Positions 5,570-29,893 of a DNA stretch of 32,000 bases are shown piece by piece. A program made the position numbers and the translations under genes. The notes beneath the pieces are model-generated. The model worked only from the letters and a program-made list of their open reading frames with translations. It made no database searches and was not told where the DNA came from. How positions within the stretch are numbered: position 1 is the stretch's first letter; each line of letters opens with the position of its first letter. The stretch is from Methanobacterium sp. UBA44 (GTDB lineage: Archaea > Methanobacteriota > Methanobacteria > Methanobacteriales > Methanobacteriaceae): positions 77,433 through 109,432 of the forward strand of contig DACV01000003.1 in assembly GCA_002494885.1 (NCBI GenBank), read 5' to 3'.

Positions 5570-6400
5570 TTAATTTCTCAATCCCAATTCAATTACCATC
5601 TGTTCCGTCTTATTTTTATCAGGAATAAGATAATATATTCCATTAATGCGCTGCCCTTTACCTGTAACTAAAGCAGTTTGAGCATTATCTAGATCAAAAC
5701 CTGTAAGAACTTGTTCTATTATTGCAAATTCGTAGGGAGGAATGCTAGTGTGAGTATTTTCTCTCAACTGGTTCATAACAGAAGGTAATTTAACAATATT
5801 ACCTGGTTTTAAAGCCTCTTTGTAAATTGCTGCAAGAATTTTTTGATGTCTTTCAACCCTTCCAATGTCTCCTGCACCATCTTGTCTAAAACGTGCGTAA
5901 AGCAAAGTTTGTTCTCCATTAAGTTTATTATAACCTGCTTTTCCATTCAATTCAGGTCTAGCCGCTGCAACGTGCGGTTCAACATCAATATATACTCCAC
6001 CTAATGTATCCACTATACTCTTGAATTCATCAAAGTTTACTACAACATAATAATCTATAGATACATTCAAAAAATTCTCTACAGTCTGAACTGTCAAATT
6101 AATTCCACCTAACCCATATGCAGCGTTAATCTTATCCATACCATGTCCTTGTATATTTATTTTAGAATCCCTTGGAATAGAAAGAAGAGAAACCTTTCTT
6201 GTATTTTTATCAATAGAAAGAATAGTTATAGAGTCTGTATTTCCTGAATAAATTGAATTTTGAGCATCTCTACCTAATAGCAATATATTTATCCTTGAAC
6301 CAGTTTCATCATTAGTAACGTTAATCAGCAAGCCACCTAAAGCCAGAATTAAAATAGATATAAAAGTTACACTTATGATGACTTTTTGCCATTTTTTCAT
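5570..6400 (-). CDS. LytR-CpsA-Psr (LCP) family protein, N-terminally membrane-anchored
   Basis: N-terminal TM helix (VIISVTFISILILALGGLLI), then NILLLGRD...SDSITILSID...SLLSIPRDS...INAAYGLGG...RFRQDGAGDIGRVERHQ. These are conserved Arg/Asp motifs of the LCP domain. It lies 1 nt downstream of the preceding gene. Confidence 0.8.
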   Translation of the reverse strand: MKKWQKVIISVTFISILILALGGLLINVTNDETGSRINILLLGRDAQNSIYSGNTDSITILSIDKNTRKVSLLSIPRDSKINIQGHGMDKINAAYGLGGINLTVQTVENFLNVSIDYYVVVNFDEFKSIVDTLGGVYIDVEPHVAAARPELNGKAGYNKLNGEQTLLYARFRQDGAGDIGRVERHQKILAAIYKEALKPGNIVKLPSVMNQLRENTHTSIPPYEFAIIEQVLTGFDLDNAQTALVTGKGQRINGIYYLIPDKNKTEQMVIELGLRN

Positions 6401-6401
6401 T

Positions 6402-7067
6402 TTATTTCCCTAAATCATTTTTTAAAACTTTCAAATAATCATCATATCTATTAATGTTTATAAGTTCCAGATCACTGCGAGCTGGAACTCCATAAAAAAT
6501 AACGCCATCATTCACCATTTTTCTTAAAATAGGATTCAAATTATCATTATGTGAAGCCAAATATTTCTTTAAAAGAGTTTTATGACATACAAAAGGCATT
6601 CCAAGACCTTCTGCAGAGCCCAGATATCCTATTTTTCCCCGTGCAAGGATTGAAATTGTATTTTGAGGTTTTTCGCCTTTAAATACTCCTTTAATAAGAT
6701 TCTTTAAGGTTTCAGCTGATACTGTAGGTTGATCTGCTGCAACACAGAGACAATAATCAAATTTAATTCTTTTCACTCCATTTAGTAGAGATTCAGATAA
6801 TTCAACATTATTTTCAGGATTTTTAGTTACTTTAACTCTTTCATCATCAAATTCATCGATCACTGCAGTAATCTCATCGCTGAAATGTCCTAAAACAATA
6901 ATACAGTCTTCCACGCCGGCATTTAGGGTGTTTTTAATGGTTTGAAGTATAACCGGCATTCCATGTAAATCAAGAAGTAATTTATGCTTTATTTCCATTC
7001 CACGGCCCTTAAAATCTTCTCTCATTCGTCTATTTTTGCCCGCGGCCGTTATTATTGCAGAAACCAT
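6402..7067 (-). CDS. MobA-like nucleotidyltransferase (NTP_transf_3 type)
   Basis: N-terminal IITAAGKNRRM matches the G-x-G-x-R-M NTP-binding loop. LLLDLHGMPVI and the later VAADQPTVSAETLKNL match MobA/MocA-like GT-A fold nucleotidyltransferases. No TM segment. Confidence 0.7.
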   Translation of the reverse strand: MVSAIITAAGKNRRMREDFKGRGMEIKHKLLLDLHGMPVILQTIKNTLNAGVEDCIIVLGHFSDEITAVIDEFDDERVKVTKNPENNVELSESLLNGVKRIKFDYCLCVAADQPTVSAETLKNLIKGVFKGEKPQNTISILARGKIGYLGSAEGLGMPFVCHKTLLKKYLASHNDNLNPILRKMVNDGVIFYGVPARSDLELININRYDDYLKVLKNDLGK

Positions 7068-7105
7068 CTGATCACTCTAATTTTAAAATAAAGAAAAAGA
7101 TTTTC

Positions 7106-8311
7106 TTATTGAGGTATGTACTCTATGACTTTAGCATGTATACTCATGCTCGGTCCGGATCCCTCAGTCCACATAATTATTTTTACGGGATAATCATTGT
7201 TATTTGTAACTTTAACGTCCACTGCAGGATTAAATCCAAACATTACTGCATATTCACCCCAATTAAATCCTGTTGGCAGTCCAAATCCTGCCTGAGATAT
7301 CGCTCCCCTCATTGCTCTTGCTGCAGGGCAAACACCATGAGAAGCCCACCCCCCAGGAGCATGTGGGTCTATAGATCTTCCAAATCCTACAGTTTCCTTA
7401 CCTGATGAAGTTGAATGTGGTGGAATTACAGTTCCATTCCATGCTTCAACAAATGCTCGTGAATTTTGCTCTCTAACTGCATCGTTATATTCAGGGAAAG
7501 ATCCAAGTGAATCTCCATTACTTCCACTGACTTTTTCAGTAACGGGGCCCATATACACAAGTATCGGAGATCCTGAAGGATAATTTTTCATATAATCTAT
7601 TATGCTACTTCCAAATAAAGTTTCTATATCTTCTGGTGCAACTATATTCCTTCCATCATTGAAATTAGCAATAGCATAACCCAGAGTTATACGTTTACCC
7701 ACTTCAGCATTGTCGTACCATTTTTTAACATTCATTACGCTTATATAATCATGAGGAATTGTATCATTACTTATCTGACCATATGGCACTATATTTAAGG
7801 TTTTATTCCCTTCTACAATTTCCAAGCCCTCTTTTGTTTTAATTCCAAACTTATAAGGTATTTTTTCCCCATAAACAAAAGTTTCTGGCGGAGTTACAGC
7901 CAATCTATCACTTTTAACTTCTAAAATTCCCGGTCCCTTAAAACCCTGCGCAACTCCACTTTTTGAAATACTGCCGGACGTAATTCTCCCAATTGGAGTT
8001 TTAACCGTTCCAGTAACTATTGCATCGAAGAAGTCAATAAATCTCATATCTTCAATATAATCCCTAAGATATCCCGGATCGTAAAGTATGGGTACCTTTC
8101 TAATTTCTTTTTCATCTACAACCTTAGTTCCTGCCAGCACTGTATCTCCTATACTCATCGAAGTTATTTCAGTTGGTCCCTGAGGTGGAACATAATTGTC
8201 CATTGCCGTTCCCAAGGGATACATGACCAGCGCCAGTAAAATAAGTATTAATATACTAATCTTTGAATTTTTTAATAATTTCTGCAGAATATTTAACTCC
8301 CCCTTCCCCAA
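7106..8311 (-). CDS. Membrane-anchored extracytoplasmic protein with a VanW-like C-terminal domain
   Basis: It has an N-terminal signal-anchor (ISILILILLALVMYPLG). The C-terminal WASHGVCPAARAMRGAISQAGF...AVDVKVTNNNDYPVKIIMW resembles the VanW core (GGGVCQ...YNAALLAG...D.kf.N....P..I). Coding status is confident, but the family call rests on motifs only. The start is TTG at 8311 and is uncertain. Confidence 0.5.
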   Translation of the reverse strand: MGKGELNILQKLLKNSKISILILILLALVMYPLGTAMDNYVPPQGPTEITSMSIGDTVLAGTKVVDEKEIRKVPILYDPGYLRDYIEDMRFIDFFDAIVTGTVKTPIGRITSGSISKSGVAQGFKGPGILEVKSDRLAVTPPETFVYGEKIPYKFGIKTKEGLEIVEGNKTLNIVPYGQISNDTIPHDYISVMNVKKWYDNAEVGKRITLGYAIANFNDGRNIVAPEDIETLFGSSIIDYMKNYPSGSPILVYMGPVTEKVSGSNGDSLGSFPEYNDAVREQNSRAFVEAWNGTVIPPHSTSSGKETVGFGRSIDPHAPGGWASHGVCPAARAMRGAISQAGFGLPTGFNWGEYAVMFGFNPAVDVKVTNNNDYPVKIIMWTEGSGPSMSIHAKVIEYIPQ

Positions 8312-9788
8312 TAACTAATATTATGTCATTTTCATCAGCTGCTGAAATGGCTTTTTCTAAACTTTCTTCCACCTGATCCCTGCTTGCCCCAAGTGTTCCT
8401 ATTTTAGAGCTTTTTTTACTTGACTCTGTCAAAGTTACCTCAGAATCAATTTCAATCTCCATCAATGCATTTCTGCTTGCATTGGATGCTACTACTATAG
8501 TATCAACATCATTTAATATTTTTGCTATTTCGATATCCCCTTCAATTCCGCTTTCAGAGGATATAGTATTAACCACTATCAGTTTTGAGCTTGCAGGCTT
8601 TTCAAGAAGTAACGCCTGAATTATAGCTTTAACACCAGCAGGATTATGGGCAAAATCAACTATTATTCTTTTTCCGATGCTAAACTCTTCAAATCTACCT
8701 TTAACACCTTCAAAGCTTTCAATACCCTTTGTAATATCATCAAAATCTATATTTAATGCCATAGCGCCGCATGCAGCTGCAAGGGCATTGTAAATGTTAT
8801 GAATTCCCTTATTTTTTAATTTAATTCTGGCCTTATTTGACCCCATGATTAACGTGAATTGATCATCTTCAATATCAGAAGCTTTTACATGTACATCTGG
8901 ACGTCTAAATCCACATTTGCACCCATATACGCCAAGATGACCCAGATAATGTTTTAGATATTTAAGATTTTTCTTGCATAATGGACAATTCCTTTTTTCT
9001 GGATAGGCGTTAACAACGATATTTAAATCATCTATTCCAAAAAATAGACTATTATCCGGATTTTTTCCAATTTCAAGGCATGCAATTACAGGATCATCAG
9101 CATTTAAAATCAATAAATCAGCAACATCAATCATTTCACCTTTACACTGGATATAATCTAAAAAATTCCCCGAATTATCTAAATGATCCTTAGATATATT
9201 GGTTATGATTCCTATATTGACTCCTGAATTTACTGCAGATTTTTTAATCTCATTTGGGTTTCCAAATGTCCCTATTTCTAAAACAGCCACATCACCATCA
9301 AGTCTTGCTTGAAGAGATGGTATCAATTCCGTGTTCCCCTGTATATTAAGTCCATGTTCTGGAACTTTATATCCTGCGCCTTTTAAAATATGCTTGAGCA
9401 TCCAGGTTGTTGTTGTCTTTCCATTTGTTCCAGTTATTCCAATAACCGGTTTATCAATTTCGCATATCTCCAGAACTTCATCTACACTTATTATATCTGC
9501 CTCTGTAGATTTTTCTATTTTATCAATTAATTTAGAATTATTAAGTAAACTTGGAGCAAGAACAATGATATCTGCATCTTTTAAAATGTCTTCATCATGT
9601 TCTCCGAGATTAAGATAAATTCCCTCTTTCTTTAGGATTTCTATTTGAGGGCTATCGGTTGAAAGATCTGAAACCACTACATCTGCACCGTAATCCTTTA
9701 AAACCCTTGCCATTAAGCTGCCTACAGTTCCACAGCCTCCTATGACAACAATTTTAGGATTTTTCTTCTTAATAAAATTAGATTTCAT
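8256..9788 (-). CDS. Mur-ligase family protein, MurD-like with a Cys4 insertion (pseudomurein peptide ligase candidate)
   Basis: Rossmann-like N-domain KIVVIGGCGTVGSLMARVLKDYGADVVVSD, P-loop GITGTNGKTTT, central motif ITNISKDHLD, C-domain GVKGRFEEF...VDFAHNPAGV. The insertion is CPLC-x18-CKC (Cys268, 271, 290, 292). Confidence 0.85.
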   Translation of the reverse strand: MKSNFIKKKNPKIVVIGGCGTVGSLMARVLKDYGADVVVSDLSTDSPQIEILKKEGIYLNLGEHDEDILKDADIIVLAPSLLNNSKLIDKIEKSTEADIISVDEVLEICEIDKPVIGITGTNGKTTTTWMLKHILKGAGYKVPEHGLNIQGNTELIPSLQARLDGDVAVLEIGTFGNPNEIKKSAVNSGVNIGIITNISKDHLDNSGNFLDYIQCKGEMIDVADLLILNADDPVIACLEIGKNPDNSLFFGIDDLNIVVNAYPEKRNCPLCKKNLKYLKHYLGHLGVYGCKCGFRRPDVHVKASDIEDDQFTLIMGSNKARIKLKNKGIHNIYNALAAACGAMALNIDFDDITKGIESFEGVKGRFEEFSIGKRIIVDFAHNPAGVKAIIQALLLEKPASSKLIVVNTISSESGIEGDIEIAKILNDVDTIVVASNASRNALMEIEIDSEVTLTESSKKSSKIGTLGASRDQVEESLEKAISAADENDIILVIGEGGVKYSAEIIKKFKD

Positions 9789-9807: not shown

Positions 9808-12600
9808 TTAAGCTGTTTTATCCTTAAAAGTGGTTATACCTTCTTTAATATCTGATTTTACTTTATTATAGGCATTAACGACACCGGGACCAATATGAAT
9901 TATTGTATCGCCTTTATTTGCAATTTCCAATGCTTTAACTATTGAATCCATTACACTGGTTGTTTTATGTGTTTCTGCCTTTTCAGCTCCTTTTACCACT
10001 TCTTCTGCAGCTTCTTCGCTTATTTCTTCTATTGTTTCATTTTTTGCGCTTGCAATTACTATATCTGCATGTTTTCCAAGTATCTCGCCTATTTTATATT
10101 TATCACGTATTGTAAGGGTATCAGGATTATCTATGGATATTATTAACTTTCCTTCAAGCTCCATGCCTTCAAAAAGCCGCTCCATTGCCTCAGGATTGTG
10201 TGCTGCATCCATAAATATATTAATTTCATTGACTGTATCTATCTTTTCAAATCGTCCCTTTACTCCGGGGAAATTCTCTATTTTATCCTTTATATATTCC
10301 AGATCGAAATCTAAAGCCATGTCTGTAGCAACAACTGCTAAAGCGTTTTCAATATTGCACATTCCAGGTACTTTAAGCTTTATATTTAATATACATGGCT
10401 CCCTATATTTTCTTTCAAAATTATCGCAGTTACAGCACATCTGCCCACAATTTCTACATACTATTGTGGGGATTTTCTGAGTTTTAATGGTAAATTCAGA
10501 GCCATAAAGCCCTTTAAGTTCTATATCTTCTGCCAACATATGGTAGTCTATATTATGTCTATGAGAATAAGTTCTGCCTTCATTAACAATTATTCTGGGT
10601 TCATTAATCCCATAATATATCATTTCTTCGTTGAATTTAGGCGATAATCTACTTATAATTGGATCATCCCCATTAGCAACCAAAACTCCGTTTTTATGAA
10701 GTAAATCCTTTAATGATACGTTTCTTTCCACATATTCTTCATATGAATTAAATTCATCCATATGATCCGGTGTGAGATTGGTTAAAATACCAATACATAT
10801 TTCCAGACCATCTACCATTCTTATTGTGCCGTGCGGAAGTTCAAATACCGCAAAATCTTTACTTTTCATCTTATTTTCCACTACAAAATCAACTAAACCT
10901 TCAATAACCAGGGAATCTTGCAGGGAAGAGAAAAGTAAAGTATCGTACATATCAGATAAAGTATAATTGGCCATGTTAGCAGTAGTGGTTTTACCATCTG
11001 TCCCTGAAATACCTATCATTGGTATTTTTATCAGGGAATTAATCATTTTCCCAATGTCTCTTGTATTTATTTCGTCTATTTCATAATTTTCTTCACATTC
11101 ACCGATGAATTTCCTTATTTCAGAATTTCTAGGCACACTTGGAGAGATGAAAACCACGTCTGCCCACATTGCATGTTCATTCATGTGAGAGCCCAGTTCC
11201 ACAGTAACTCCTTTCTGCATCAAGTCCTCAATCTTTCTTTTTGCTTTTTTTGGGAGTTCTTCGAATTCTTTAATATCAGAAATAATGACTTCATTACCTA
11301 AATGGTTCAAGAGATGTGCTGCAGGCCTACCTGCATTTCCAGCCCCAACAATAAGTACTTTTTTATTCCTGATGACATTATCATCCTTTGATATTCTTTG
11401 TAGCGCTTTTTGTAGTTCTATAAGTTTATTCTGACCATTTCCACCTATGAAAATATTTTTATATATATCACTGCATTCCAATGCAAAATTAAGTACAGAA
11501 TCAGTGTCTTTAATTATCTTTATTTCCCCAGTATAGCCTTCCTCTTTTAATTTTTTAAATGCAATACCTGTTGTATCCTCAAGACCAGGAAAAAGTACTA
11601 TAATATCTGGATCTGTCCTAGCAACTTCTCCTAAAATGTCAAATCGGCATGTTTCACTTTCTCTGGGAGTACCAATTATTGCTACGTCAAATTCTAACTC
11701 ATTAAAAACCGCTGCAGCCGCATCCAGATTATCGGTTTTACCAACTACAAAATTGCAGCCAGAAATGTTTATGGTTGCTGTTCTGCCCTTAACTCCCTTA
11801 AAGTTCTCAAGTGCATTATTAATTTCATTTTCGGGAATTTCTAAGATATTTGCAACGGTTGCAGCTGCTGCTGCATTTTGTAAATTAAATTGGCCAAATA
11901 ATTTAAGATTTCTATGTCCATTTTCAAAAAAGAAGGTTTGAACAGGATAATTTCCCATCTTTGACAAAATTTTATCCTTTTCATTTAATACTGCTATTTT
12001 TCCTTCTATAAATTTGCCCAGAGATGCTTTATAATTATCGATGGAACTATGGAAGTCCATGTGATCCATTCCCATATTGGTTACAACCACCAGATCAAAA
12101 TCAAATGCATATGAACAAAAATCAAGGGTCATATCACATACTTCCACCACAATAACGTCGTATTTTTGTTTTGAAGATTCTAATATGAGTTTTGTATATC
12201 CCTGAAAGCCTCCACCTGCATTTCCACCAACAAGAACGTTAAGGCCAGCTTTTTCAAGTATCTCCCGTATCATAAAGCATGTTGTTGTTTTACCGTTGGT
12301 ACCTGTAACGCCTATTGTAAAAACAGTTTTATGATCGGCCAAAATATCAGATAAAATTTTTTTACTGGATCTTAATTTTTCCCCGATTTTACTACTCCAT
12401 AAGCTCGGACTTAAAACAACTGCATCTGCAGAATTTATCTTTTCAAAATCATGATAGCCAAAATCAACATCTATCGCCGTATTACAATTCAATTCCATAT
12501 TTTTTTGCATATCAGAAGCATAAACTTTATATCCATAATTAATCAGAGATTTAACGGCATTTCTGCCCTCAGTTCCTAATCCAACCACTGCAATTTTCAT
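9808..12600 (-). CDS. Tandem fusion of two complete Mur-ligase modules (930 aa)
   Basis: Module 1, about aa 1-410: KIAVVGLGTEGRNAV...YASD, GVTGTNGKTTT, VTNMGMDHMD, GVKGRTA. Module 2, about aa 411-930: KVLIVGAGNAGRPAAHLL...ISD, GISGTDGKTTT, LTNLTPDHMD, CRNCGQMCCNC, GVKGRFEKI...MDAAHNPEA. It is a single uninterrupted ORF. Confidence 0.85.
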   Translation of the reverse strand: MKIAVVGLGTEGRNAVKSLINYGYKVYASDMQKNMELNCNTAIDVDFGYHDFEKINSADAVVLSPSLWSSKIGEKLRSSKKILSDILADHKTVFTIGVTGTNGKTTTCFMIREILEKAGLNVLVGGNAGGGFQGYTKLILESSKQKYDVIVVEVCDMTLDFCSYAFDFDLVVVTNMGMDHMDFHSSIDNYKASLGKFIEGKIAVLNEKDKILSKMGNYPVQTFFFENGHRNLKLFGQFNLQNAAAAATVANILEIPENEINNALENFKGVKGRTATINISGCNFVVGKTDNLDAAAAVFNELEFDVAIIGTPRESETCRFDILGEVARTDPDIIVLFPGLEDTTGIAFKKLKEEGYTGEIKIIKDTDSVLNFALECSDIYKNIFIGGNGQNKLIELQKALQRISKDDNVIRNKKVLIVGAGNAGRPAAHLLNHLGNEVIISDIKEFEELPKKAKRKIEDLMQKGVTVELGSHMNEHAMWADVVFISPSVPRNSEIRKFIGECEENYEIDEINTRDIGKMINSLIKIPMIGISGTDGKTTTANMANYTLSDMYDTLLFSSLQDSLVIEGLVDFVVENKMKSKDFAVFELPHGTIRMVDGLEICIGILTNLTPDHMDEFNSYEEYVERNVSLKDLLHKNGVLVANGDDPIISRLSPKFNEEMIYYGINEPRIIVNEGRTYSHRHNIDYHMLAEDIELKGLYGSEFTIKTQKIPTIVCRNCGQMCCNCDNFERKYREPCILNIKLKVPGMCNIENALAVVATDMALDFDLEYIKDKIENFPGVKGRFEKIDTVNEINIFMDAAHNPEAMERLFEGMELEGKLIISIDNPDTLTIRDKYKIGEILGKHADIVIASAKNETIEEISEEAAEEVVKGAEKAETHKTTSVMDSIVKALEIANKGDTIIHIGPGVVNAYNKVKSDIKEGITTFKDKTA

Positions 12601-18184: not shown

Positions 18185-19639
18185 TTGGGAATCGGAGGCG
18201 GTATAATTACGAAGAAATTGCTTTTTGCAGCCCTATTAATATCCAGTCTATTCCTGTCTGGTATAGCTGGTGTAAGCGCAACAGACGCGGAAACTGCAGA
18301 AATACAGTCTGATAATAGCAGTACTGTACAAGAAAAGGCAGATATAGAGATAAATAATACAGATAATGTAGATAAATCGGCTACAACGCAAAATCCAGCC
18401 GATGAAAGTGTAAAAACAGTGAAAAATACAGGTACTCCTAAGGCAAGTACTAAAACTAATCAAACCACAACTGAAACAGAGTCAACCACACAAGACACAG
18501 TAAGTACAGATGTTGATAAAACAACAGAATCTCAAACAGTACCATCAACAGATTCAGCCAGCCAAGATTCAACAGATACAGAAACGAAAGACGTAGATCA
18601 AACTGCAAATGCAGAAAATTCAGTGCCTACATCTCCAGATACAGCAAATAATACCACAAACACTCAAGAAAAATTAGCCGCAGCAGGAGAAACAAAAACT
18701 CCGGCAAGCTTTACTGTAAGTCAAATTAACGATGCAGCAGCTAGAGTCAAAGCATTCATTGAAACCAACAAGAGACTTCCAAAATATGTGACAATTGGTA
18801 CAAGTCAAGTTACAATGCCTGACTTTCTGAAACTACTCAGTGCAGGATTACTACAGATAAATAGTGGGAAAACAGCACCAATAACGCTTAAAAATGTGAA
18901 TACTCCTGTAAAACCAAGTGAAAGTATTAAAAGCGGGAACATATATAAAGCTGGCTATTTGGACCTTGCTAAAAGAGTTAACGCATTTATAGATGCAAAT
19001 GGTAGACTGCCAAATTATACAAGCAGTAATCTTGGTAAACTAACCTATGAATCTTTAATTTATATGTTCTCCCGGGTACTTAACTTCCAGAAAGAAAATA
19101 ACAGATTACCGAATTATGTAGCGGTAAAGCCATGGAGTACCATTGGAACCTCAAGTACAGGAGGAACAACACCAGTTCCAGTACCTGCAGAGTTACAACA
19201 GTATCTTAAAGCTACATCAAATTGCCAAGTTACCAATGCACAAATCAAGTCGCTAACAGCATCGATAACAAATGGTAAAACTTCCACGTACGATAAAGCT
19301 GCGGCAATATTCAACTGGGTAAGGAATAACATAGGTTACTCCTTCTATTACAATACTAAAAAAGGAGCTACAGGTACTTTAAGTGCAAAAACAGCGAATT
19401 GCTGTGATACTGCTCACCTGTTAATAGCTCTTCAAAGAGCAGCAGGAATTCCAGCAAGATATGTCCATGCTAATGCTAAATTCACAAGCGGTAACACTTA
19501 TGGGCACGTTTGGGCAGAAGTGTATGTAAACGGTAAATGGTACACCGCAGATGCAACCAGCTCAAGAAACACATTTGGTGTTGTAAAAAGCTGGACTTCA
19601 GCAACAATAAAAGGGAGATACGCATCATTACCATTCTAA
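18185..19639 (+). CDS. Secreted protein: signal peptide, Thr/Ser/Asp-rich linker, 3 pseudomurein-binding repeats and a transglutaminase/Pei-like cysteine-protease-fold domain
   Basis: Signal-like KKLLFAALLISSLFLSGIAGVSA. Low-complexity T/S/D/N/Q linker at about 18290-18700. Three repeats end in RLPKYV, RLPNYT and RLPNYV (about 18710-19136). The C-terminal core NCCDTAHLLIALQRAAGIPARYV...GHVWAEVYVNGKWYTADAT carries Cys406/407 (19400-19405), His441 (19505-19507) and Asp456 (19550-19552). The start codon is uncertain (TTG 18185, ATT 18206 or TTG 18218). Confidence 0.8.
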   Translation: MGIGGGIITKKLLFAALLISSLFLSGIAGVSATDAETAEIQSDNSSTVQEKADIEINNTDNVDKSATTQNPADESVKTVKNTGTPKASTKTNQTTTETESTTQDTVSTDVDKTTESQTVPSTDSASQDSTDTETKDVDQTANAENSVPTSPDTANNTTNTQEKLAAAGETKTPASFTVSQINDAAARVKAFIETNKRLPKYVTIGTSQVTMPDFLKLLSAGLLQINSGKTAPITLKNVNTPVKPSESIKSGNIYKAGYLDLAKRVNAFIDANGRLPNYTSSNLGKLTYESLIYMFSRVLNFQKENNRLPNYVAVKPWSTIGTSSTGGTTPVPVPAELQQYLKATSNCQVTNAQIKSLTASITNGKTSTYDKAAAIFNWVRNNIGYSFYYNTKKGATGTLSAKTANCCDTAHLLIALQRAAGIPARYVHANAKFTSGNTYGHVWAEVYVNGKWYTADATSSRNTFGVVKSWTSATIKGRYASLPF

Positions 19640-19668: not shown

Positions 19669-20046
19669 ATGATTAAAAAATCAATAGTTGCATTAGTAGT
19701 AATTGTAGCAGCAGCAGCCATGGTATTCGGCGCTTCAAACTACACACATTCTGCTATTGACAATTCTAACCCGGAACAGAAAGATTCATCTACTGATAAC
19801 AATACACGCAGCAATGCATCAGACGATAGCACAAATGAGACAAAAATATCTCCAGCAAAAGCCCAGGAAATAGCCCAAAAATACATTGAAGAGCCAGGAA
19901 CAACTGCTGGAACGCCAAAATTGATTAAAACAAATGGTCAATACATATATGTCGTTCCTGTAATAGATAATGGCACAACTGTTGGAGAAATAAACATAGA
20001 TGCAATAAATGGAAAAAATGTTGGGGGTGCAGGAGGAGCACCTTAA
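19669..20046 (+). CDS. Membrane-anchored PepSY-domain protein
   Basis: N-terminal TM helix IVALVVIVAAAAMVF. The C-terminal ISPAKAQEIAQKYI...KTNGQYIYVVPVIDNGTTVGEINIDAINGKNVG matches the PepSY pattern. It lies 29 nt after the upstream gene, with AAGAGG before the ATG. Confidence 0.65.
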   Translation: MIKKSIVALVVIVAAAAMVFGASNYTHSAIDNSNPEQKDSSTDNNTRSNASDDSTNETKISPAKAQEIAQKYIEEPGTTAGTPKLIKTNGQYIYVVPVIDNGTTVGEINIDAINGKNVGGAGGAP

Positions 20047-22419: not shown

Positions 22420-25128
22420 TTAGTTTTTAAGTTTAGATACTGCAAAATCAAGCGCTTCATGCATTTTATCTTTATTTGGGCCTGCACCTTGAGCTAAATT
22501 TGGCCTTCCGCCTCCGCCTCCGCCAAGAATTGCTGCAGCTTCTTTTATGATTTCATTAATCTTAATACCTGATTCAATAGCTTCGCGAGATGAAGTTCCC
22601 ACAATTTTACCTTCCAAATTACCTAAAAGGACAACATCAAATTCTCCATCATCGTCAGTGAGATCTAAGGCCATTTTCTGCATCTCACCCATATCTGCAT
22701 CGATCATATCCTCTAAGACTTTCAGATCACCGATATTTTCTGCTTTACCCATTAAAGTTTGCATCTTTAATGTGGCCATCCCATCTTTAAGTCGTTTTAT
22801 TACATTCTTAAATGATTTCCATTCATTGAAAAACCTTTCGCATGTTTTTGGGAGCTGTTCTGTTTCAACACTGAAAATTGAAGCGCTTTCTTTTAATAAA
22901 TTGTCATTTGACTGAATTGCCTCAATTGCAGCTTCACCTGCTGAAAATTCAATTCTTTCAACACCATCCTGAATTCTTTCAGTCTTTGTTATCTTAATAA
23001 GTCCTATATCTCCAGTCATGTTACAATGTGTTCCCGCACATGCCTGTACATCAACATCATCGATTTTAACGGTTCTAATTGACATTCCAGGAACTACTCC
23101 TCCCTGATAAAGGATAAATCCATACTTTTTCTCGGCTTCAGCCCTTGCCATCCAGTTTGTTAGAACAGGACGGTTTTCCATGATGTATTTATTTGCATGA
23201 AGCTCGATTTCCTGTAATTCCCCTGGCCTTATCCTCTTGTAATGAGAAATATCAATTCTTGACTTTTTAACGCCTTTTTGAGCTCCTGCCTGCCATACAT
23301 GGTCTCCCAGGACTTTTCTTGCTGAAGCAACGATTAAGTGAGTTGCAGTGTGATTCCTTGTCAAAGCCTGTCTTCTGGAAAGGTCGATTTGGCCAGTAAT
23401 TATCTGACCTTTATATGGATGAACTTTTTCAATATCTTCTTTATTTACGCTGTGTAAAACAATATTATCAACTTTTTCGGCGTGAAAAACCTTTATTTTC
23501 TCCCCACGTATATCCAAATATCCAATATCAGAAGGTTGACCGCCTCCTTCGGGATAAAATAGTGTTTGGTCCAGTATCACATTGTTTTCATAAGTTCCAA
23601 GTACATGAGCCTCAAATTCTGTTTCATAAGGGTTTTCATAGAATAATAGGCCTGTAACAGGGAATTCAAGCCCAATTTCAGATTCTTCTTCATGAATTTC
23701 TTCTTCATGCTCATTTGCAACTAAAGTATAAAAATTATCTGGAACGTTCACTTTAAAGTCCATTCTTTCTGCAATTTCCTTTGCAGTTTCAGGCGGCATT
23801 CCATGTGATTCATAAAGTTCTTTAAGCGTTTCAAATGGCATTACATCTTTATTTTTCTTTTTAAGCTTTTTAACGCTCCTTTTAACAAGTTCCCTGCCTT
23901 TTGAAACAGTTTTAAGATATCTTTTATCTTCCAGATTGATAACATTGAGTATATGATCTTGATGTTGCCTGATTTCTGGATATGTCTTTGATAAGAAGTC
24001 AAGCTGTATTTTCATTATATCTGCCAGGGATTCTTTTAGTCCAAGGTCTTTAATGAACCTGATTGTTCTCCTTAAAACTAATCTTGCCAGATATCCTTCT
24101 TTAACATTAGATGGAATTACTCCATCAGCAAGCATGAATGCAAGGCATCGTGTGTGGTCTGCAATTACATATATGGATTCCATTGGCTTAGTAGCCCTTT
24201 CAAGTTCATCTAATGGAATATCTAATCTTTCAGCAACCTTTGACCTTAATTCTCTAAGGTCTGCAAAGGTTTCAATATCCATCATCCCTGCAACCTGGGC
24301 ATTTTCAGCGAGGATTTTTTCATCCACTTCAACACCAGATAATTCTTTTAATTCATTTATTACAGGACCAAACGAAGCATCATAAGCTGTAGGGGTCCCT
24401 TGGGATATCCAGGCAAATCTTTCAAGTCCATATCCAGTATCTACAATTGTAAGTGGAATTTCTTCAAGTTTTCCACCAGGTAGAGTTTTATATTTTATAA
24501 AAACAAGTGTTGCAAGTTCTACTCCTCTAACACAAATCTCATAGCATGGACCGGCATTTCCTCCACCTTCCCACCATGATTCAATATAAGTAATTTCTTC
24601 AGGATTAATCCCAATGTACTTTATAAAGTCATGACAGTATTTTACTGTTTCATCTTCCCAGTAAATCTGTTCATTGTCAGAATTAAAAGCGTGATGCCCG
24701 CCCATTGTAAAACAAGTCATGTGTCTGCCGGTTCTTCCCACATTATCTACATCGTTAAGTCTAATTGATGGCTGTGCTACAACTAACGGGTTTGCAGGCG
24801 GATTTACTGCTCCCGATGTGACCCATGGTTGAAAATCGTATATTGACGCTCCAACCAAGAAAACGTCATCTCTCCATCTTTTTGCAAGAACTGGATATCT
24901 ATTTATGGGAGTGTGGCCATTTTGAGCAAAAAATTCAATGAAAGTTTTCTGTATTTCATAAAGATCGTATTTTTTATCTGTAGCTGGATTTCCGATAAAT
25001 GTATATTCGTCGCAAGGAGCATCTCCACACGTATCTCTATCCCCAATAGACCAAAAATCGTTTCCACAAGTAATACAAGTTTTTTTAGTATATCCAAGTT
25101 CTTCAAGCTGGCGAGACATAGTAATCAT
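22420..25128 (-). CDS. alaS: Alanine--tRNA ligase
   Basis: 902 aa archaeal-type AlaRS. N-terminal zinc motif CITCGNDFWS...CGDAPC, editing-domain HTATHL...CAGTHC and a C-terminal DHHA1-like GGGGGGRPNLAQGAG. ATG at 25119 (MSRQLEEL) is an alternative start. Confidence 0.95.
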   Translation of the reverse strand: MITMSRQLEELGYTKKTCITCGNDFWSIGDRDTCGDAPCDEYTFIGNPATDKKYDLYEIQKTFIEFFAQNGHTPINRYPVLAKRWRDDVFLVGASIYDFQPWVTSGAVNPPANPLVVAQPSIRLNDVDNVGRTGRHMTCFTMGGHHAFNSDNEQIYWEDETVKYCHDFIKYIGINPEEITYIESWWEGGGNAGPCYEICVRGVELATLVFIKYKTLPGGKLEEIPLTIVDTGYGLERFAWISQGTPTAYDASFGPVINELKELSGVEVDEKILAENAQVAGMMDIETFADLRELRSKVAERLDIPLDELERATKPMESIYVIADHTRCLAFMLADGVIPSNVKEGYLARLVLRRTIRFIKDLGLKESLADIMKIQLDFLSKTYPEIRQHQDHILNVINLEDKRYLKTVSKGRELVKRSVKKLKKKNKDVMPFETLKELYESHGMPPETAKEIAERMDFKVNVPDNFYTLVANEHEEEIHEEESEIGLEFPVTGLLFYENPYETEFEAHVLGTYENNVILDQTLFYPEGGGQPSDIGYLDIRGEKIKVFHAEKVDNIVLHSVNKEDIEKVHPYKGQIITGQIDLSRRQALTRNHTATHLIVASARKVLGDHVWQAGAQKGVKKSRIDISHYKRIRPGELQEIELHANKYIMENRPVLTNWMARAEAEKKYGFILYQGGVVPGMSIRTVKIDDVDVQACAGTHCNMTGDIGLIKITKTERIQDGVERIEFSAGEAAIEAIQSNDNLLKESASIFSVETEQLPKTCERFFNEWKSFKNVIKRLKDGMATLKMQTLMGKAENIGDLKVLEDMIDADMGEMQKMALDLTDDDGEFDVVLLGNLEGKIVGTSSREAIESGIKINEIIKEAAAILGGGGGGRPNLAQGAGPNKDKMHEALDFAVSKLKN

Positions 25129-25212: not shown

Positions 25213-25524
<312 letters not shown>

Positions 25525-25551
25525 ATGATCACCTCAATATTTTAAAATCAT

Positions 25552-25630
25552 TCAAAATCGTAGATTTTGGAGCGCAAAACAGAGTTTTGCTGGCTTCGAT
25601 TTTGATGCCCTGCAAAAACTTAGTTTCTGC
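25552..25630. repeat. Tandem array of 3-4 hairpins (locus c) between the L10 and P1 genes
   Basis: 25553-25569: CAAAATC-GTA-GATTTTG, 7 bp perfect. 25574-25590: GCAAAAC-AGA-GTTTTGC, 7 bp perfect. 25592-25609: GGC.TC/GA.GCC, weak. 25612-25630: GCAAAAA-CTTAG-TTTCTGC, one mismatch. Confidence 0.75.
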
Positions 25631-25651
25631 CGGTTTAATTTATAATTAAGA

Positions 25652-26656
25652 TTAGCCAAACAAGGCACCTAACCCTGCTGCTGCATCTTCTTCTTTATCT
25701 TCTTCCTCTTCTTCGTCTTCTTTATCTTCTTCTTTATCTTCCTCTTTAACTTCAACAGCCTTTGGGCGTGATTTCAGTTTTTCCAGAAGTTCATCATCAA
25801 GTGCTTCTTCATTTTTAGCTGATAAATCAGATGCTAATGCTAACATCTGTGAGTAAGCCTTGGATAACAGTAAATCTGTTGTTTTAGATGTAAGTATCTC
25901 AGCATTTAATGCCAGATTCATTGCTTTAGTTTGAGCATTCATTATTATGAGATCCATTGTCTCTTTAGTGTATATAGATGCATTTACTGAAAGATTCAAT
26001 GCTCTCCGGAATGCATTTTGTATATCTGACAATGTTTTCTCTTCATCTATTGTTAGAAGATCAGATGTGTAAATTGCTTCATCTTCATATGCTGCTACTA
26101 AGTCAATTCCAACTTCCATTGGTTGGATGTCAAGTCTTGTAAGAATACTTGCCACATCTCGAGGAACTGCTTCTCCCTCTGCAACAATTACCATATCCTT
26201 GGTTATAACAATTTTTCCTTTTTCAATTTTAGCAGGAATACCTACTTTTTGGAGTTCTCCAAGAATAGGGCCTGGATTAAAAGCAGTGTCACCTTTAGGC
26301 ACTACAATATCTGATGGAGCTATGCTTCCAGCTTTTGCCGGTGCTGCAGTTTTACTAGCTTCAAGAATCTTGAAGAGTTTAAACGGATTCATATCCGTAA
26401 AGATCAATGCTGGTTGACCTTCCATATGTTCACCGAGTGCATCTATATTAGATTTTTCAGATTCACTCAAAGCTAAGCTCATCAATGTTTTTCTTGACAT
26501 CTTAATGACTGTAGTGTCCTTCAAGCTCTGCCGCATTTTCTGAAGCTGAGGAGCCGGTATATCTGCCAGATTAGCCATGCCCACCACATTGTGAGTTTTA
26601 ATAAGCTCTTTGATGTCATTTACCTCTTCTTTTTTCCATTCAGCAACATGAGCCAT
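25652..26656 (-). CDS. rpl10: 50S ribosomal protein L10 (P0)
   Basis: 334 aa. [13 protein letters not shown]-terminus and an acidic C-terminal tail ending [10 protein letters not shown]. Its ATG overlaps the L1 stop (TAATG). Confidence 0.9.
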
Positions 26657-27294
26657 TAGATCACCCTCGCTACTGGACCCATTGTTGTTTTAATATACAT
26701 GGATTTTATCTGGTTTCTTCCTTTCTCCAGTTTTCTGTCTAAAATTCCAAGGACAGCTTCCACGTTATCTGCAATTAGCTCATCATCCATATCCTGGGAA
26801 CCAATAATTGCCTGGATAACTGGTTGATCCTTTATTCTAACTTTTACTGTATTGTTAAGTCTTTCCATTATTGGATCTGGTTTTATAGACGCTGGAACTG
26901 GTTTTGGCATCTTTTTTCGAGGCCCAAGGACTGGTCCTAAAAATCTACCCACTTGAGGCATCATATCTGCCTGCGCAACAAAAAATGTGTATTCATTAGC
27001 CATTTTTTTGGCCTGTTTCCGGTCTTTTCCAAGATCTTCTAAATCCTGTTTGTTGATTACAAGATCTGCACCGGCATTTTTTGCCTGAACTGCCAGTTCA
27101 CCATCTGCTATAAAGGCAATTTTAATGCCTTTACCTCGTCCATTTGGAAGGAAGACTTCTTCATCAAATCTGTTTTCTGGTTTTTTCACGTCTAAATCTT
27201 TGATATTTATAACAACATCTATAGACTGTGTGAAGTTTCTCGGCTTAGATTCACTCTTAGCCTTCTTCACCGCTTCCAATATCTCTTGATTCAT
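26656..27294 (-). CDS. rpl1: 50S ribosomal protein L1
   Basis: [33 protein letters not shown]... is typical of L1. The ATG (complement of 27292-27294) sits 6 nt after GGAGG. The ORF-track TTG at 27297 is one codon upstream. Confidence 0.9.
27230..27270 (-). promoter_or_regulatory. L1-binding autoregulatory mRNA structure inside the 5' end of the L1 gene
   Basis: The minus strand reads GUGAAGAAGGCUAAGAGUGAAUCUAAGCCGAGAAACUUCAC. It forms helix GUGAAG/CUUCAC, helix GGCU/AGCC plus AGA/UCU, and an asymmetric loop GAGAAA. As I recall it, this nearly matches the Methanococcus vannielii L1 mRNA operator (GUGAAGGAGGCU...AAGCCGAGAAACUUCAC). It starts 24 nt after the ATG. Confidence 0.6.
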
Positions 27295-27391
27295 CAAATT
27301 CCTCCATGAACTTCTTTGATAAAAAGTTCACAATAATTGATTAGTTAATCAAATGGATTATTCTGGTCAATTTAATAATAAAATTTATTTT

Positions 27392-28314
<923 letters not shown>

Positions 28315-28741: not shown

Positions 28742-29893
28742 TTAAAAAACACCATCTATAAATTCTTCTAAAGCTGATTCCTTGACTGGTTCTTTAGTTT
28801 CCTCCTCCATATACTCGCGTTCTGCAGGTACACCGAATATATGAGGTGATTTCACTCCAGCTACTACAAGGGTTGTTCTGATAACATTCTGGAGCTCTTC
28901 CTGTATCTGAGTACCCCATATTATGTTTGCATCTGGATCCAATTCATCAGCAACTATCTGAACAATCTTTTCAGCCTCATGTAATGTTAGATCTGAGCTT
29001 CCGGATATGTTTATCAGGGCGCCTTTAGCATTTGAAATGTCCAGATCAAGTAATGGACTGTTTAATGCTTCATGTACTGACTCTATTGCTCTATCACCAG
29101 ATTCAGATTCACCCATACCTATCATTGCCATTCCAGATTCTTTCATTATGCTTCTAATGTCTGCAAAATCAAGAGCTACGAGACCGGGCTTTGTGATAAG
29201 TTCTGTTATTCCTTTAACAGCTCTTCCCAGAAGTTCGTCTGTAACCATGAAAGCTTTATTTATTGGTAGATTTGGTGCTACTTCCAGTAATTTATCATTA
29301 GGTATTACAATAACGGTATCTGCTGAACTCTGGAGCTTATCTAAACCTTTCTCAGCATTTTCGCGTCTTCGAAGTCCTTCAGCGCTGAAAGGCATTGTTG
29401 CAACAGCAATTGTTAGTGCACCAATCTTTTTGGCCAGGTTTGCAATAACTGGAGCAGATCCTGTTCCAGTACCTCCACCAAGCCCACATGTTACAAAAAC
29501 CATGTCAGCTCCTTCTAGCCTTTCTTTTATCTGTTCTTCGCTCTCTTCTGCGCTTTGCTCACCTATTTCAGGTATACCTCCAGCGCCAAGCCCACCACAT
29601 GTTCCTTTACCTATCAATATCTTCTGATGTGAGTTTGAATAGAAAAGATCCTGAGCATCAGTGTTTACACTAATTGTATCTGCTCCTTCTATTCCTATTT
29701 CCATTAACCTCGAAACTGTATTATTTCCAGCCCCTCCAGTTCCAACAACCAATATCTTAGCCTTGCTTTCTTCTATGATATTTTGTAAGTCACTGTTAAT
29801 ATCCGATATATCGATGCTATTTTGTATATCATTAGGTCTTCTCTCTCTTCTCACTTCTGATTCTTTTAAGGTATTATTTATAAGAGATTTCAA
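28742..29893 (-). CDS. ftsZ: Cell division GTPase FtsZ
   Basis: [10 protein letters not shown], the tubulin signature [18 protein letters not shown], and T7-loop region [10 protein letters not shown]. Confidence 0.95.

Follow-up and report, generated by a model that had tools for sequence, protein, structure and literature searches.

The cross-linking question and PmurA

Which enzyme cross-links the stem peptides of pseudomurein? The question has been open since the polymer was described, and the gene examined here, PmurA, is a candidate with which it becomes testable. PmurA lies in a 32,000-nucleotide stretch of DNA (the window) from Methanobacterium sp. UBA44 (assembly GCA_002494885.1, contig DACV01000003.1, positions 77,433 to 109,432 of the forward strand; coordinates below are those of the window), and its product ends in what we predict to be a distant relative of the bacterial VanW domain. 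A first-pass annotation, made from the sequence alone, had stated that the pseudomurein transpeptidase is unidentified, and the literature agrees (PMC2812497, PMC10117817, PMC11915815); genes resembling those of penicillin-binding proteins are absent (Leahy et al.).

The PmurA family itself is already known. The protein is a full-length match to the NCBIfam equivalog NF053640, 'Mfer335 family protein PmurA' (534.4 bits against a curated cutoff of 400 bits, E 1.4e-160; residues 23-400 on model positions 1-378), and at the sequence level it is a plain member of this family of Gene Cluster 1 (Subedi et al. 2021), with the same synteny with PmurB and the pMur ligases and the same taxonomic restriction. 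Mfer335 homologues are invariably present in, and restricted to, the pseudomurein methanogens, and Mfer335/PmurA is one of two unexplained, invariably present genes of the core pseudomurein cluster (Subedi et al. 2021, PMC10117817). The same authors concluded that the bacterial extracellular cross-linking enzymes have no counterparts in archaea with pseudomurein (PMC10117817). What appears to be new is the reading of the family: where it has passed for a hypothetical protein without domains or for a glutamate kinase of the cytoplasm, PmurA now looks extracytoplasmic and VanW-like. Literature searches combining pseudomurein with VanW, transpeptidase or L,D-transpeptidase (LDT) returned no paper drawing the VanW link, and neither the consistent extracytoplasmic topology nor the functional hypothesis was found in the literature searched.

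A predicted VanW-like domain at the C-terminus of PmurA

VanW domains were characterized in 2024 as Cys-dependent LDTs with a proposed Cys-His-Asp triad, the Cys of their GGGxCQ motif being required for transpeptidation (PMC11348318); the statement in the first-pass annotation that VanW proteins of Clostridioides difficile have this activity was correct. A review of December 2025 describes VanW domains as essentially Gram-positive and leaves archaea unmentioned (PMC12729407). By eye, the C-terminus of PmurA had been likened to the VanW core, and profile-profile comparison bears the likeness out. We used two sets of VanW proteins, 27 of the VanW-B type and 120 mainstream ones, all of them real database proteins with a precomputed PF04294 annotation; typed bait sequences served for retrieval only. 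Aligned by hhalign with the 120 mainstream proteins, the PmurA family scores a probability of 93.8% (E 1.8e-7) over 125 columns, residues 267-394 of PmurA falling on positions 56-202 of VanW. When the family alignment of 63 sequences or only the C-terminal domain is used, the probability is 95-96% (P 4e-8 to 4e-9, 131-140 columns). Reversed sequences reach 0.2%, and 30 column-shuffled controls give a maximum score of 19.5 against the real 58-60, with a minimum P of 0.033. The N-terminal 262 residues of PmurA, run as a further control, stay at the noise level (1.9%), that is, the N-terminal and middle domains show no relation to VanW by this method.

Significant as it is between profiles, the resemblance stays below threshold when the single sequence is compared with the Pfam VanW model: PmurA scores 14.5 bits (E 0.025, residues 362-385 only), below the cutoff of 27. 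Weak matches to the same model recur in 17 of 52 family members (best E 0.0019), the next family appearing in four, while Pfam and NCBIfam scans of PmurA show no YkuD, transglutaminase, kinase or peptidoglycan-binding domain. The alignment of 27 VanW-B-type proteins alone, a profile of low diversity (Neff, the effective number of sequences, 2.7), does not detect the PmurA family (probability 0.4-1.2%), and the link is given only by the broader mainstream set. HMMER, run exhaustively with the family profile against 1.84 billion representative proteins, reached no bacterial VanW protein, and a sequence-profile search of the PDB gave nothing beyond weak matches that are antibody framework noise.

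The motifs that PmurA shares with VanW are collinear. In order, R280..N283 of PmurA corresponds to R..N of VanW, W291-NGT-x-I-P297 to NG..l.PGE, the nucleophile motif H325-G-x-C328 to GGGxC, an A..AG motif in the following helix to the same A..AG, and D/G-x-K-V-x-N370 in a late strand to D-x-K-F-x-N; Cys328 is aligned on the catalytic Cys of VanW. AlphaFold2 models of PmurA (mean predicted local distance difference test, pLDDT, 91; predicted template modelling score 0.82) and of the VanW protein P0308 (pLDDT 90.5), both of them confident, present the same order of elements: a strand, a long helix, two short strands, a hairpin, a central helix and three C-terminal strands. The Cys occupies the second position of that central helix in each model: Cys328 in the helix spanning 327-340 of PmurA, Cys133 in the one spanning 132-145 of P0308. 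Foldseek finds no match for the PmurA model in the PDB (best E 0.079, TM about 0.1) or in BFVD; this null would fit a VanW fold for which no structure has been solved, and is no proof of the link.

That the resemblance arose by chance or convergence between unrelated folds is a reading for which the sub-threshold Pfam score and the silent HMMER search speak. We hold it to be very improbable, with a P-value of about 1e-7 to 1e-9 over the full domain and, as far as the models can be trusted, invariant motifs that are collinear within an identical order of secondary structure; pure chance is unlikely because the hhalign controls remained at noise.

On these comparisons the C-terminal 145 residues of PmurA are predicted to be a divergent VanW-type domain, a distant relative of VanW. 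The overall plan of the VanW LDTs (PF04294; C. difficile Ldt4 and Ldt5, PMC11348318), a membrane anchor followed by a large ectodomain and a C-terminal catalytic domain, recurs in PmurA, as do the aligned nucleophile, the element order and the shared R..N, NG..I.P and D.K..N motifs. The differences are equally clear. Where VanW LDTs have GGGxCQ, PmurA has SHGxCP together with the new invariant residues His325, Arg332 and Arg335; the VanW motif GY.EA is absent; and an unrelated middle domain of 220 residues, for which Pfam has no match, takes the place of PG4 or G5 domains. We do not call PmurA a VanW LDT because it falls below the Pfam threshold and lacks two of the three proposed triad residues of VanW; its domain is better described as divergent and VanW-like, with a mode of action that probably resembles that of a VanW LDT.

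A putative Cys-His active site

The 63 orthologues in our alignment reach down to about 30-40% identity and include a protein from a Methanopyrus-like genome of 62% G+C. Thirteen positions are invariant among them: R280, N283, W291, P297, H325, G326, C328, P329, R332, R335, P346, G348 and N370. Conservation of Cys328 and of the neighbouring His325, which the first-pass annotation had proposed as a check, thus extends to all 63, and the Methanopyrus-like orthologue, AAHGCCPPARALR, keeps the invariant residues. In 37 of the 63 members, as in PmurA of the source genome (motif SHGVCP), Cys328 is the only Cys, and it is therefore not a disulphide partner. Translation of 7319-7345 on the minus strand gives ASHGVCPAA and confirms 7328-7330 as the Cys328 codon, as had been stated before.

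Directly before the Cys, PmurA has an invariant S/T/A-His-Gly where VanW has GGG. The VanW invariants R153, H156, D168 and A169 have no counterpart. The proposed catalytic His of VanW (ERxxH) falls in an eight-residue deletion of PmurA, and the proposed catalytic Asp (GxDAT) aligns with Glu353, kept in only 34 of the 63 members. With the proposed VanW triad not conserved, catalysis in PmurA must be rewired. Asp315 was considered as a universal third residue of a triad and rejected, being Glu in one member and missing in the Methanopyrus-like one.

An incomplete triad is also what one would expect if the ectodomain were non-catalytic, or differently catalytic: a VanW-fold module that binds or scaffolds the lipid-linked precursor or the wall, as a regulator or an assembly factor. 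Several bacterial VanW proteins that were tested had no LDT activity (PMC11348318), and the large middle domain of PmurA is without known function. The invariant H325-G-x-C328-P, R332 and R335, with Cys328 alone in most members, look like the signature of an active site, and we regard the scaffold as quite unlikely.

The first-pass annotation had also heard an echo of the SHGC motif of YkuD LDTs. The local likeness is real, (S/T)xGC.R in YkuD against SHGvCP..R in PmurA, where one extra residue stands between Gly and Cys; homology does not follow, as none of 52 PmurA members matches the Pfam YkuD profile hidden Markov model (HMM; PF03734) at E<=10, and the motif HG(S/T)-x10-(S/T)xGCxR is not found. 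Thiol acyl-enzyme chemistry would be common to both, putatively so in PmurA, on different folds, and from sequence the resemblance of the motifs appears convergent at best.

Membrane topology and the start codon

PmurA has one hydrophobic segment only, at residues ~18-36, with a Kyte-Doolittle value of 2.4 against 0.76 or less elsewhere. The segment is kept in 53 of the 63 aligned family members, many of which have an ATG start 8-12 residues before the helix (MRRSLLNPIL..., MSRSWRKISIT...); in the remaining ten the gene call begins at the equivalent of Met30 and cuts the helix off. Net charge, averaged over the members, changes from +2.2 ahead of the helix to -1.3 behind it, which points to an N-in/C-out orientation. 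These features indicate that PmurA is a type-II membrane-anchored or secreted protein with its bulk outside the cytoplasmic membrane, as the first-pass annotation had supposed. Whether the segment is cleaved off as a signal peptide (…PLGTA|MD) or stays in place as an anchor, most of the protein would lie outside.

The public gene call for this protein (P0001) is 100% identical to PmurA over only 372 residues, starting at Met30. We consider this start probably mis-called, because orthologues with upstream ATG starts retain the helix and because tblastn against related genomes matches query residues 1/2-401, so that the region upstream of Met30 is conserved as protein. The TTG start is directly preceded by an in-frame TAG. 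A purine-rich GGGGAAGGGGGAG lies just within the TTG-started open reading frame (ORF; 8222..8311, minus strand), and the exact start, anywhere from codon 1 to about codon 17, is therefore uncertain; of the possible starts, only Met30 would lose the helix.

The cluster protein OG0001147 of Lupo et al. is apparently the PmurA family, and we take it as such. It was reported as a domain-less hypothetical with neither a signal peptide nor a transmembrane (TM) segment (Lupo et al. 2025, PMC11915815), whereas Subedi et al. noted a membrane insertion segment near the N-terminus of Mfer335 and speculated on a role in phosphoryl transfer (PMC10117817). Starts mis-called in the manner of Met30 may lie behind the '0 TM' prediction, and their removal of the membrane helix may account for the conflict between the published topologies.

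Topology bears directly on a published hypothesis, which places PmurA in the cytoplasm as an NTPase or glutamate kinase supplying the glutamyl-phosphate precursor of UDP-Glu. In its favour, Mfer335 was listed as a possible phosphoryl-transfer enzyme (PMC10117817), OG0001147 was predicted to have no signal peptide or TM segment (PMC11915815), and a 2026 study proposing that PMurA phosphorylates glutamate saw the recombinant protein degrade ATP to ADP and AMP (PMC12996149). That study detected no glutamyl-phosphate, the product expected (PMC12996149). PmurA has no Walker A motif, and no kinase or NTPase match in Pfam or NCBIfam; its C-terminal domain is VanW-like; and the conserved N-terminal TM helix would place it outside, where there is no ATP, so that the predicted location of its bulk is hard to reconcile with an ATP-dependent cytoplasmic kinase. 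The glutamate-kinase idea is poorly supported by sequence, by topology and by its own negative product assay, and we judge it highly improbable. An outward-facing, VanW-like PmurA would redirect effort from the glutamate-kinase assay of PMurA (PMC12996149).

Distribution and genomic context

The exhaustive HMMER search returned only 67 hits, namely family members, fragments and two low-scoring repetitive proteins; the latter (P0184 and P0187) were rejected as bias. With 67 hits in 1.84 billion proteins, the family is very narrow. In a scan of one genome per GTDB species, 205 genomes had a relative, and our counts of names and loci cover the best 80 of these 205. The best 80 belong to Methanobacterium, Methanobrevibacter, Methanothermobacter and related metagenome-assembled genomes (MAGs), plus a single bin labelled 'Methanomicrobiales'. 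From this sampling the PmurA family is, as far as sequence searches go, confined to genomes of the Methanobacteriales/Methanopyrales type, and a spread among archaea with S-layer-only envelopes, which the first-pass annotation had named as contrary evidence, is not seen in either search, the names being of Methanobacteriales type bar that one bin. The exception (L034 4001-5170) is a PmurA contig in a MAG labelled 'Methanomicrobiales archaeon'; it is probably mis-binned or mislabelled Methanobacteriales. Should the label be correct, a PmurA would exist outside the pseudomurein orders.

Gene order around PmurA is conserved: PmurB follows in 78 of the 80 loci, and a pMur ligase gene precedes PmurA in 77. 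In the window the start of PmurA overlaps a pseudomurein ligase gene, pMurC, by 56 nucleotides, and the overlap noted at first reading is real. The NCBIfam identities of PmurA and its neighbours identify the window, of 34% G+C, as pseudomurein Gene Cluster 1 of a Methanobacterium-like archaeon. The bacterial dcw cluster offers a parallel: there the gene of a membrane-anchored transpeptidase, FtsI, lies among those of the Mur ligases, while that of PmurA, likewise predicted to be membrane-anchored, lies among those of the pMur ligases. Many related loci have one ligase-sized match only before PmurA.

Beyond PmurB, the window continues with a gene of the LCP (LytR-CpsA-Psr) family. LCP enzymes of Gram-positive bacteria attach glycopolymers to peptidoglycan. 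By analogy, an archaeal LCP gene beside the pseudomurein cluster suggests attachment of a polymer to pseudomurein. PmurA might be an anchoring transpeptidase, using the same thioester chemistry to attach a surface protein or a glycopolymer to pseudomurein, much as some YkuD LDTs attach Lpp to murein; LDTs do catalyse protein attachment (PMC12729407), and a glycopolymer transferase gene does follow the cluster here. An LCP gene is adjacent in only three of the 80 loci, however, and the conserved partners of PmurA are genes of stem-peptide synthesis, which leaves the anchoring role improbable in our estimate.

A putative cross-linking reaction and its alternatives

From its predicted domain, location and neighbours, PmurA is best read as a putative extracytoplasmic thiol acyl-transferase that cross-links pseudomurein stem peptides, a reading to which we give about an even chance. 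The more specific proposal, that PmurA is the pseudomurein cross-linking enzyme itself, an archaeal 'L,L-transpeptidase' that would descend from the bacterial VanW LDT fold, with a rewired Cys328-His325 site, is tentative, and we place it somewhat short of even.

In the scheme of König and Kandler, the bond broken during cross-linking is reportedly that between L-Lys and L-Ala, and the γ-linked Glu of the adjacent stem offers its amino group as acceptor. For pseudomurein to be cross-linked, a terminal residue has to be removed (PMC2812497). VanW and YkuD LDTs cut behind the L-configured residue at position 3 and, by way of a Cys thioester, let the terminal residue go (PMC11348318, PMC12729407). 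A transpeptidation in two steps like that of the LDTs, here of 'L,L' type, is therefore the simplest mechanism. We infer that the substrate is the pseudomurein stem peptide and that the reaction would match that of VanW LDTs: the peptide would be cut after its L-configured position-3 residue, lose its terminal residue and be joined to an amine of the neighbouring stem. The invariant Cys328 thiol, at the N-terminus of its helix, would be activated by His325, which stands at the helix N-cap as the putative general base and would replace the deleted His of VanW. Cys328 would attack the carbonyl of the stem-peptide Lys, releasing the terminal Ala and forming a thioester acyl-enzyme; a Glu of an adjacent stem would then resolve the thioester with its free amino group and so complete the cross-link. 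On the helix face that bears Cys328, one turn and two turns further along, the invariant Arg332 and Arg335 may bind the free carboxylates of the Glu-rich stem. Unlike the VanW LDTs, PmurA has an archaeal host and a putative all-L substrate with gamma and epsilon isopeptide bonds, since pseudomurein contains L-amino acids only (PMC12996149, PMC10117817). With such a substrate the bond broken would be L,L and not L,D, and PmurA could work like an LDT without being one by the definition of the recent review (PMC12729407).

Several observations weigh against this proposal, besides the low Pfam score, the silent VanW-B-type comparison and the unconserved triad described above. Some bacterial VanW proteins have no LDT activity (PMC11348318, PMC12729407), and ATP breakdown has been reported for recombinant M. 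ruminantium PMurA (PMC12996149). The PmurA gene of the Methanopyrus-like genome stands apart from the pMur genes. The cross-link candidates of the literature are transglutaminase-like proteins (PMC2812497, PMC11915815), albeit unclustered with the pMur genes (PMC11915815), and one such candidate is encoded 10 kb from PmurA in the same window.

These transglutaminase-like proteins lead to the chief rival, that PmurA is a hydrolase only, either a carboxypeptidase trimming the terminal Ala of the stem or an endopeptidase opening cross-links so that the wall can grow and be remodelled, with another enzyme, for instance a transglutaminase-like one, making the cross-links. The VanW LDTs of C. difficile have carboxypeptidase activity too, and it survives even replacement of the Cys by Ala (PMC11348318); carboxypeptidases and endopeptidases both occur among the LDT families (PMC12729407); the His and Asp of VanW are missing from PmurA; and the protein with PMBR repeats and a transglutaminase core in the window belongs to the published candidate class (PMC2812497, PMC11915815). 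An invariant Cys-His pair and a universal single-copy place in the core cluster fit an essential synthetic step better, the transglutaminase-like genes lie away from the pMur clusters (PMC11915815), and their known family members, PeiW and PeiP, are lytic. We rate the hydrolase as unlikely. Like the predicted PmurA, the transglutaminase-like and Pei (Peptidase_C71) proteins are extracytoplasmic Cys enzymes acting on pseudomurein peptides, but their domain is unrelated (the Transglut_core and Pei HMMs find no match in PmurA), they are multi-copy and encoded outside the pMur clusters, and the characterized members are lytic. The transglutaminase-core protein of this window may be of the literature's cross-linking class, or an autolysin.

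The first-pass annotation had put PmurA forward as a transpeptidase or a remodelling peptidase of pseudomurein. That candidacy is supported as far as sequence analysis reaches, and none of the three findings it had listed as fatal (no significant VanW or LDT match, a Cys328 not conserved, orthologues widespread among S-layer-only archaea) was made. If PmurA is the cross-linking enzyme, murein and pseudomurein would have a common origin in the extracellular cross-linking step too, and not only in MraY and the Mur ligases of the cytoplasm. Such a reading conflicts with two published assumptions: besides the glutamate-kinase proposal, it would contradict the published view that archaea lack counterparts of the bacterial cross-linking enzymes. 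PmurA would also become a plausible surface-exposed, Cys-dependent and methanogen-specific target for inhibiting methanogens of rumen and gut, of use in methane mitigation.

Features of the window

Table 1. PmurA, its predicted domains and sites, and genes of the pseudomurein cluster in the window
Feature	Position	Strand	Details and basis
PmurA (Mfer335-family) gene	7106..8311	-	401 amino acids (aa); TTG start; stop at 7106-7108; ORF list and NCBIfam NF053640.1
Divergent VanW-like catalytic domain (predicted)	7109..7543	-	about residues 257-401; hhalign, weak Pfam matches, secondary-structure order
Putative active-site motif S324-H325-G326-V-C328-P329-x2-R332-x2-R335	7307..7342	-	invariance in 63 sequences and VanW alignment
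Middle ectodomain	7544..8194	-	about residues 40-256; mixed alpha/beta; no recognisable family; AlphaFold2 pLDDT mostly above 85
N-terminal signal-anchor or signal peptide, ISILILILLALVMYPLGTA	8204..8260	-	about residues 18-36, after a Lys-rich stretch; helical in AlphaFold2 model
Met30 ATG	8222..8224	-	start used in public gene calls (372 aa); drops membrane helix
LCP (LytR-CpsA-Psr) family gene	5570..6400	-	Pfam E 5.8e-43; immediately downstream of PmurB
PmurB (Mfer334 family, MobA-like NTP transferase)	6402..7067	-	NCBIfam NF053639, E 6.8e-99; immediately downstream of PmurA
pMurC pseudomurein peptide ligase gene	8256..9788	-	NCBIfam NF053645, E 5e-179; overlaps PmurA start
Fused pMurD2 + pMurD1 ligase gene	9808..12600	-	930 aa; NCBIfam pMurD2 residues 1-400 (661 bits), pMurD1 414-924 (423 bits)
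PMBR + transglutaminase-core / Pei-like Peptidase_C71 protein	18185..19639	+	484 aa; three PMBR repeats, E 8e-33

The most divergent orthologue (P0136; 62% G+C, probably from a Methanopyrus genome, L081/L082 5001-6179) has no pMur or PmurB genes beside it; its gene is flanked by a TP_methylase gene on one side and, on the other, by a MoaA-like radical-SAM gene and the gene for alanyl-tRNA synthetase (AlaRS). In the window, a Cys/Ser/Arg-rich, low-complexity ORF of 116 aa (7055..7405, plus strand) runs antisense to the 3' end of PmurA; that it merely shadows the coding strand is almost certain. A small PepSY-domain protein is encoded after the transglutaminase-core gene (19669..20046, plus strand). 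The genes for AlaRS (22420..25128) and FtsZ (28742..29893, minus strand) and an operon of L11-L1-L10-L12 ribosomal proteins and NusG(Spt5) (25213..28314, minus strand) provide an ordinary housekeeping context.

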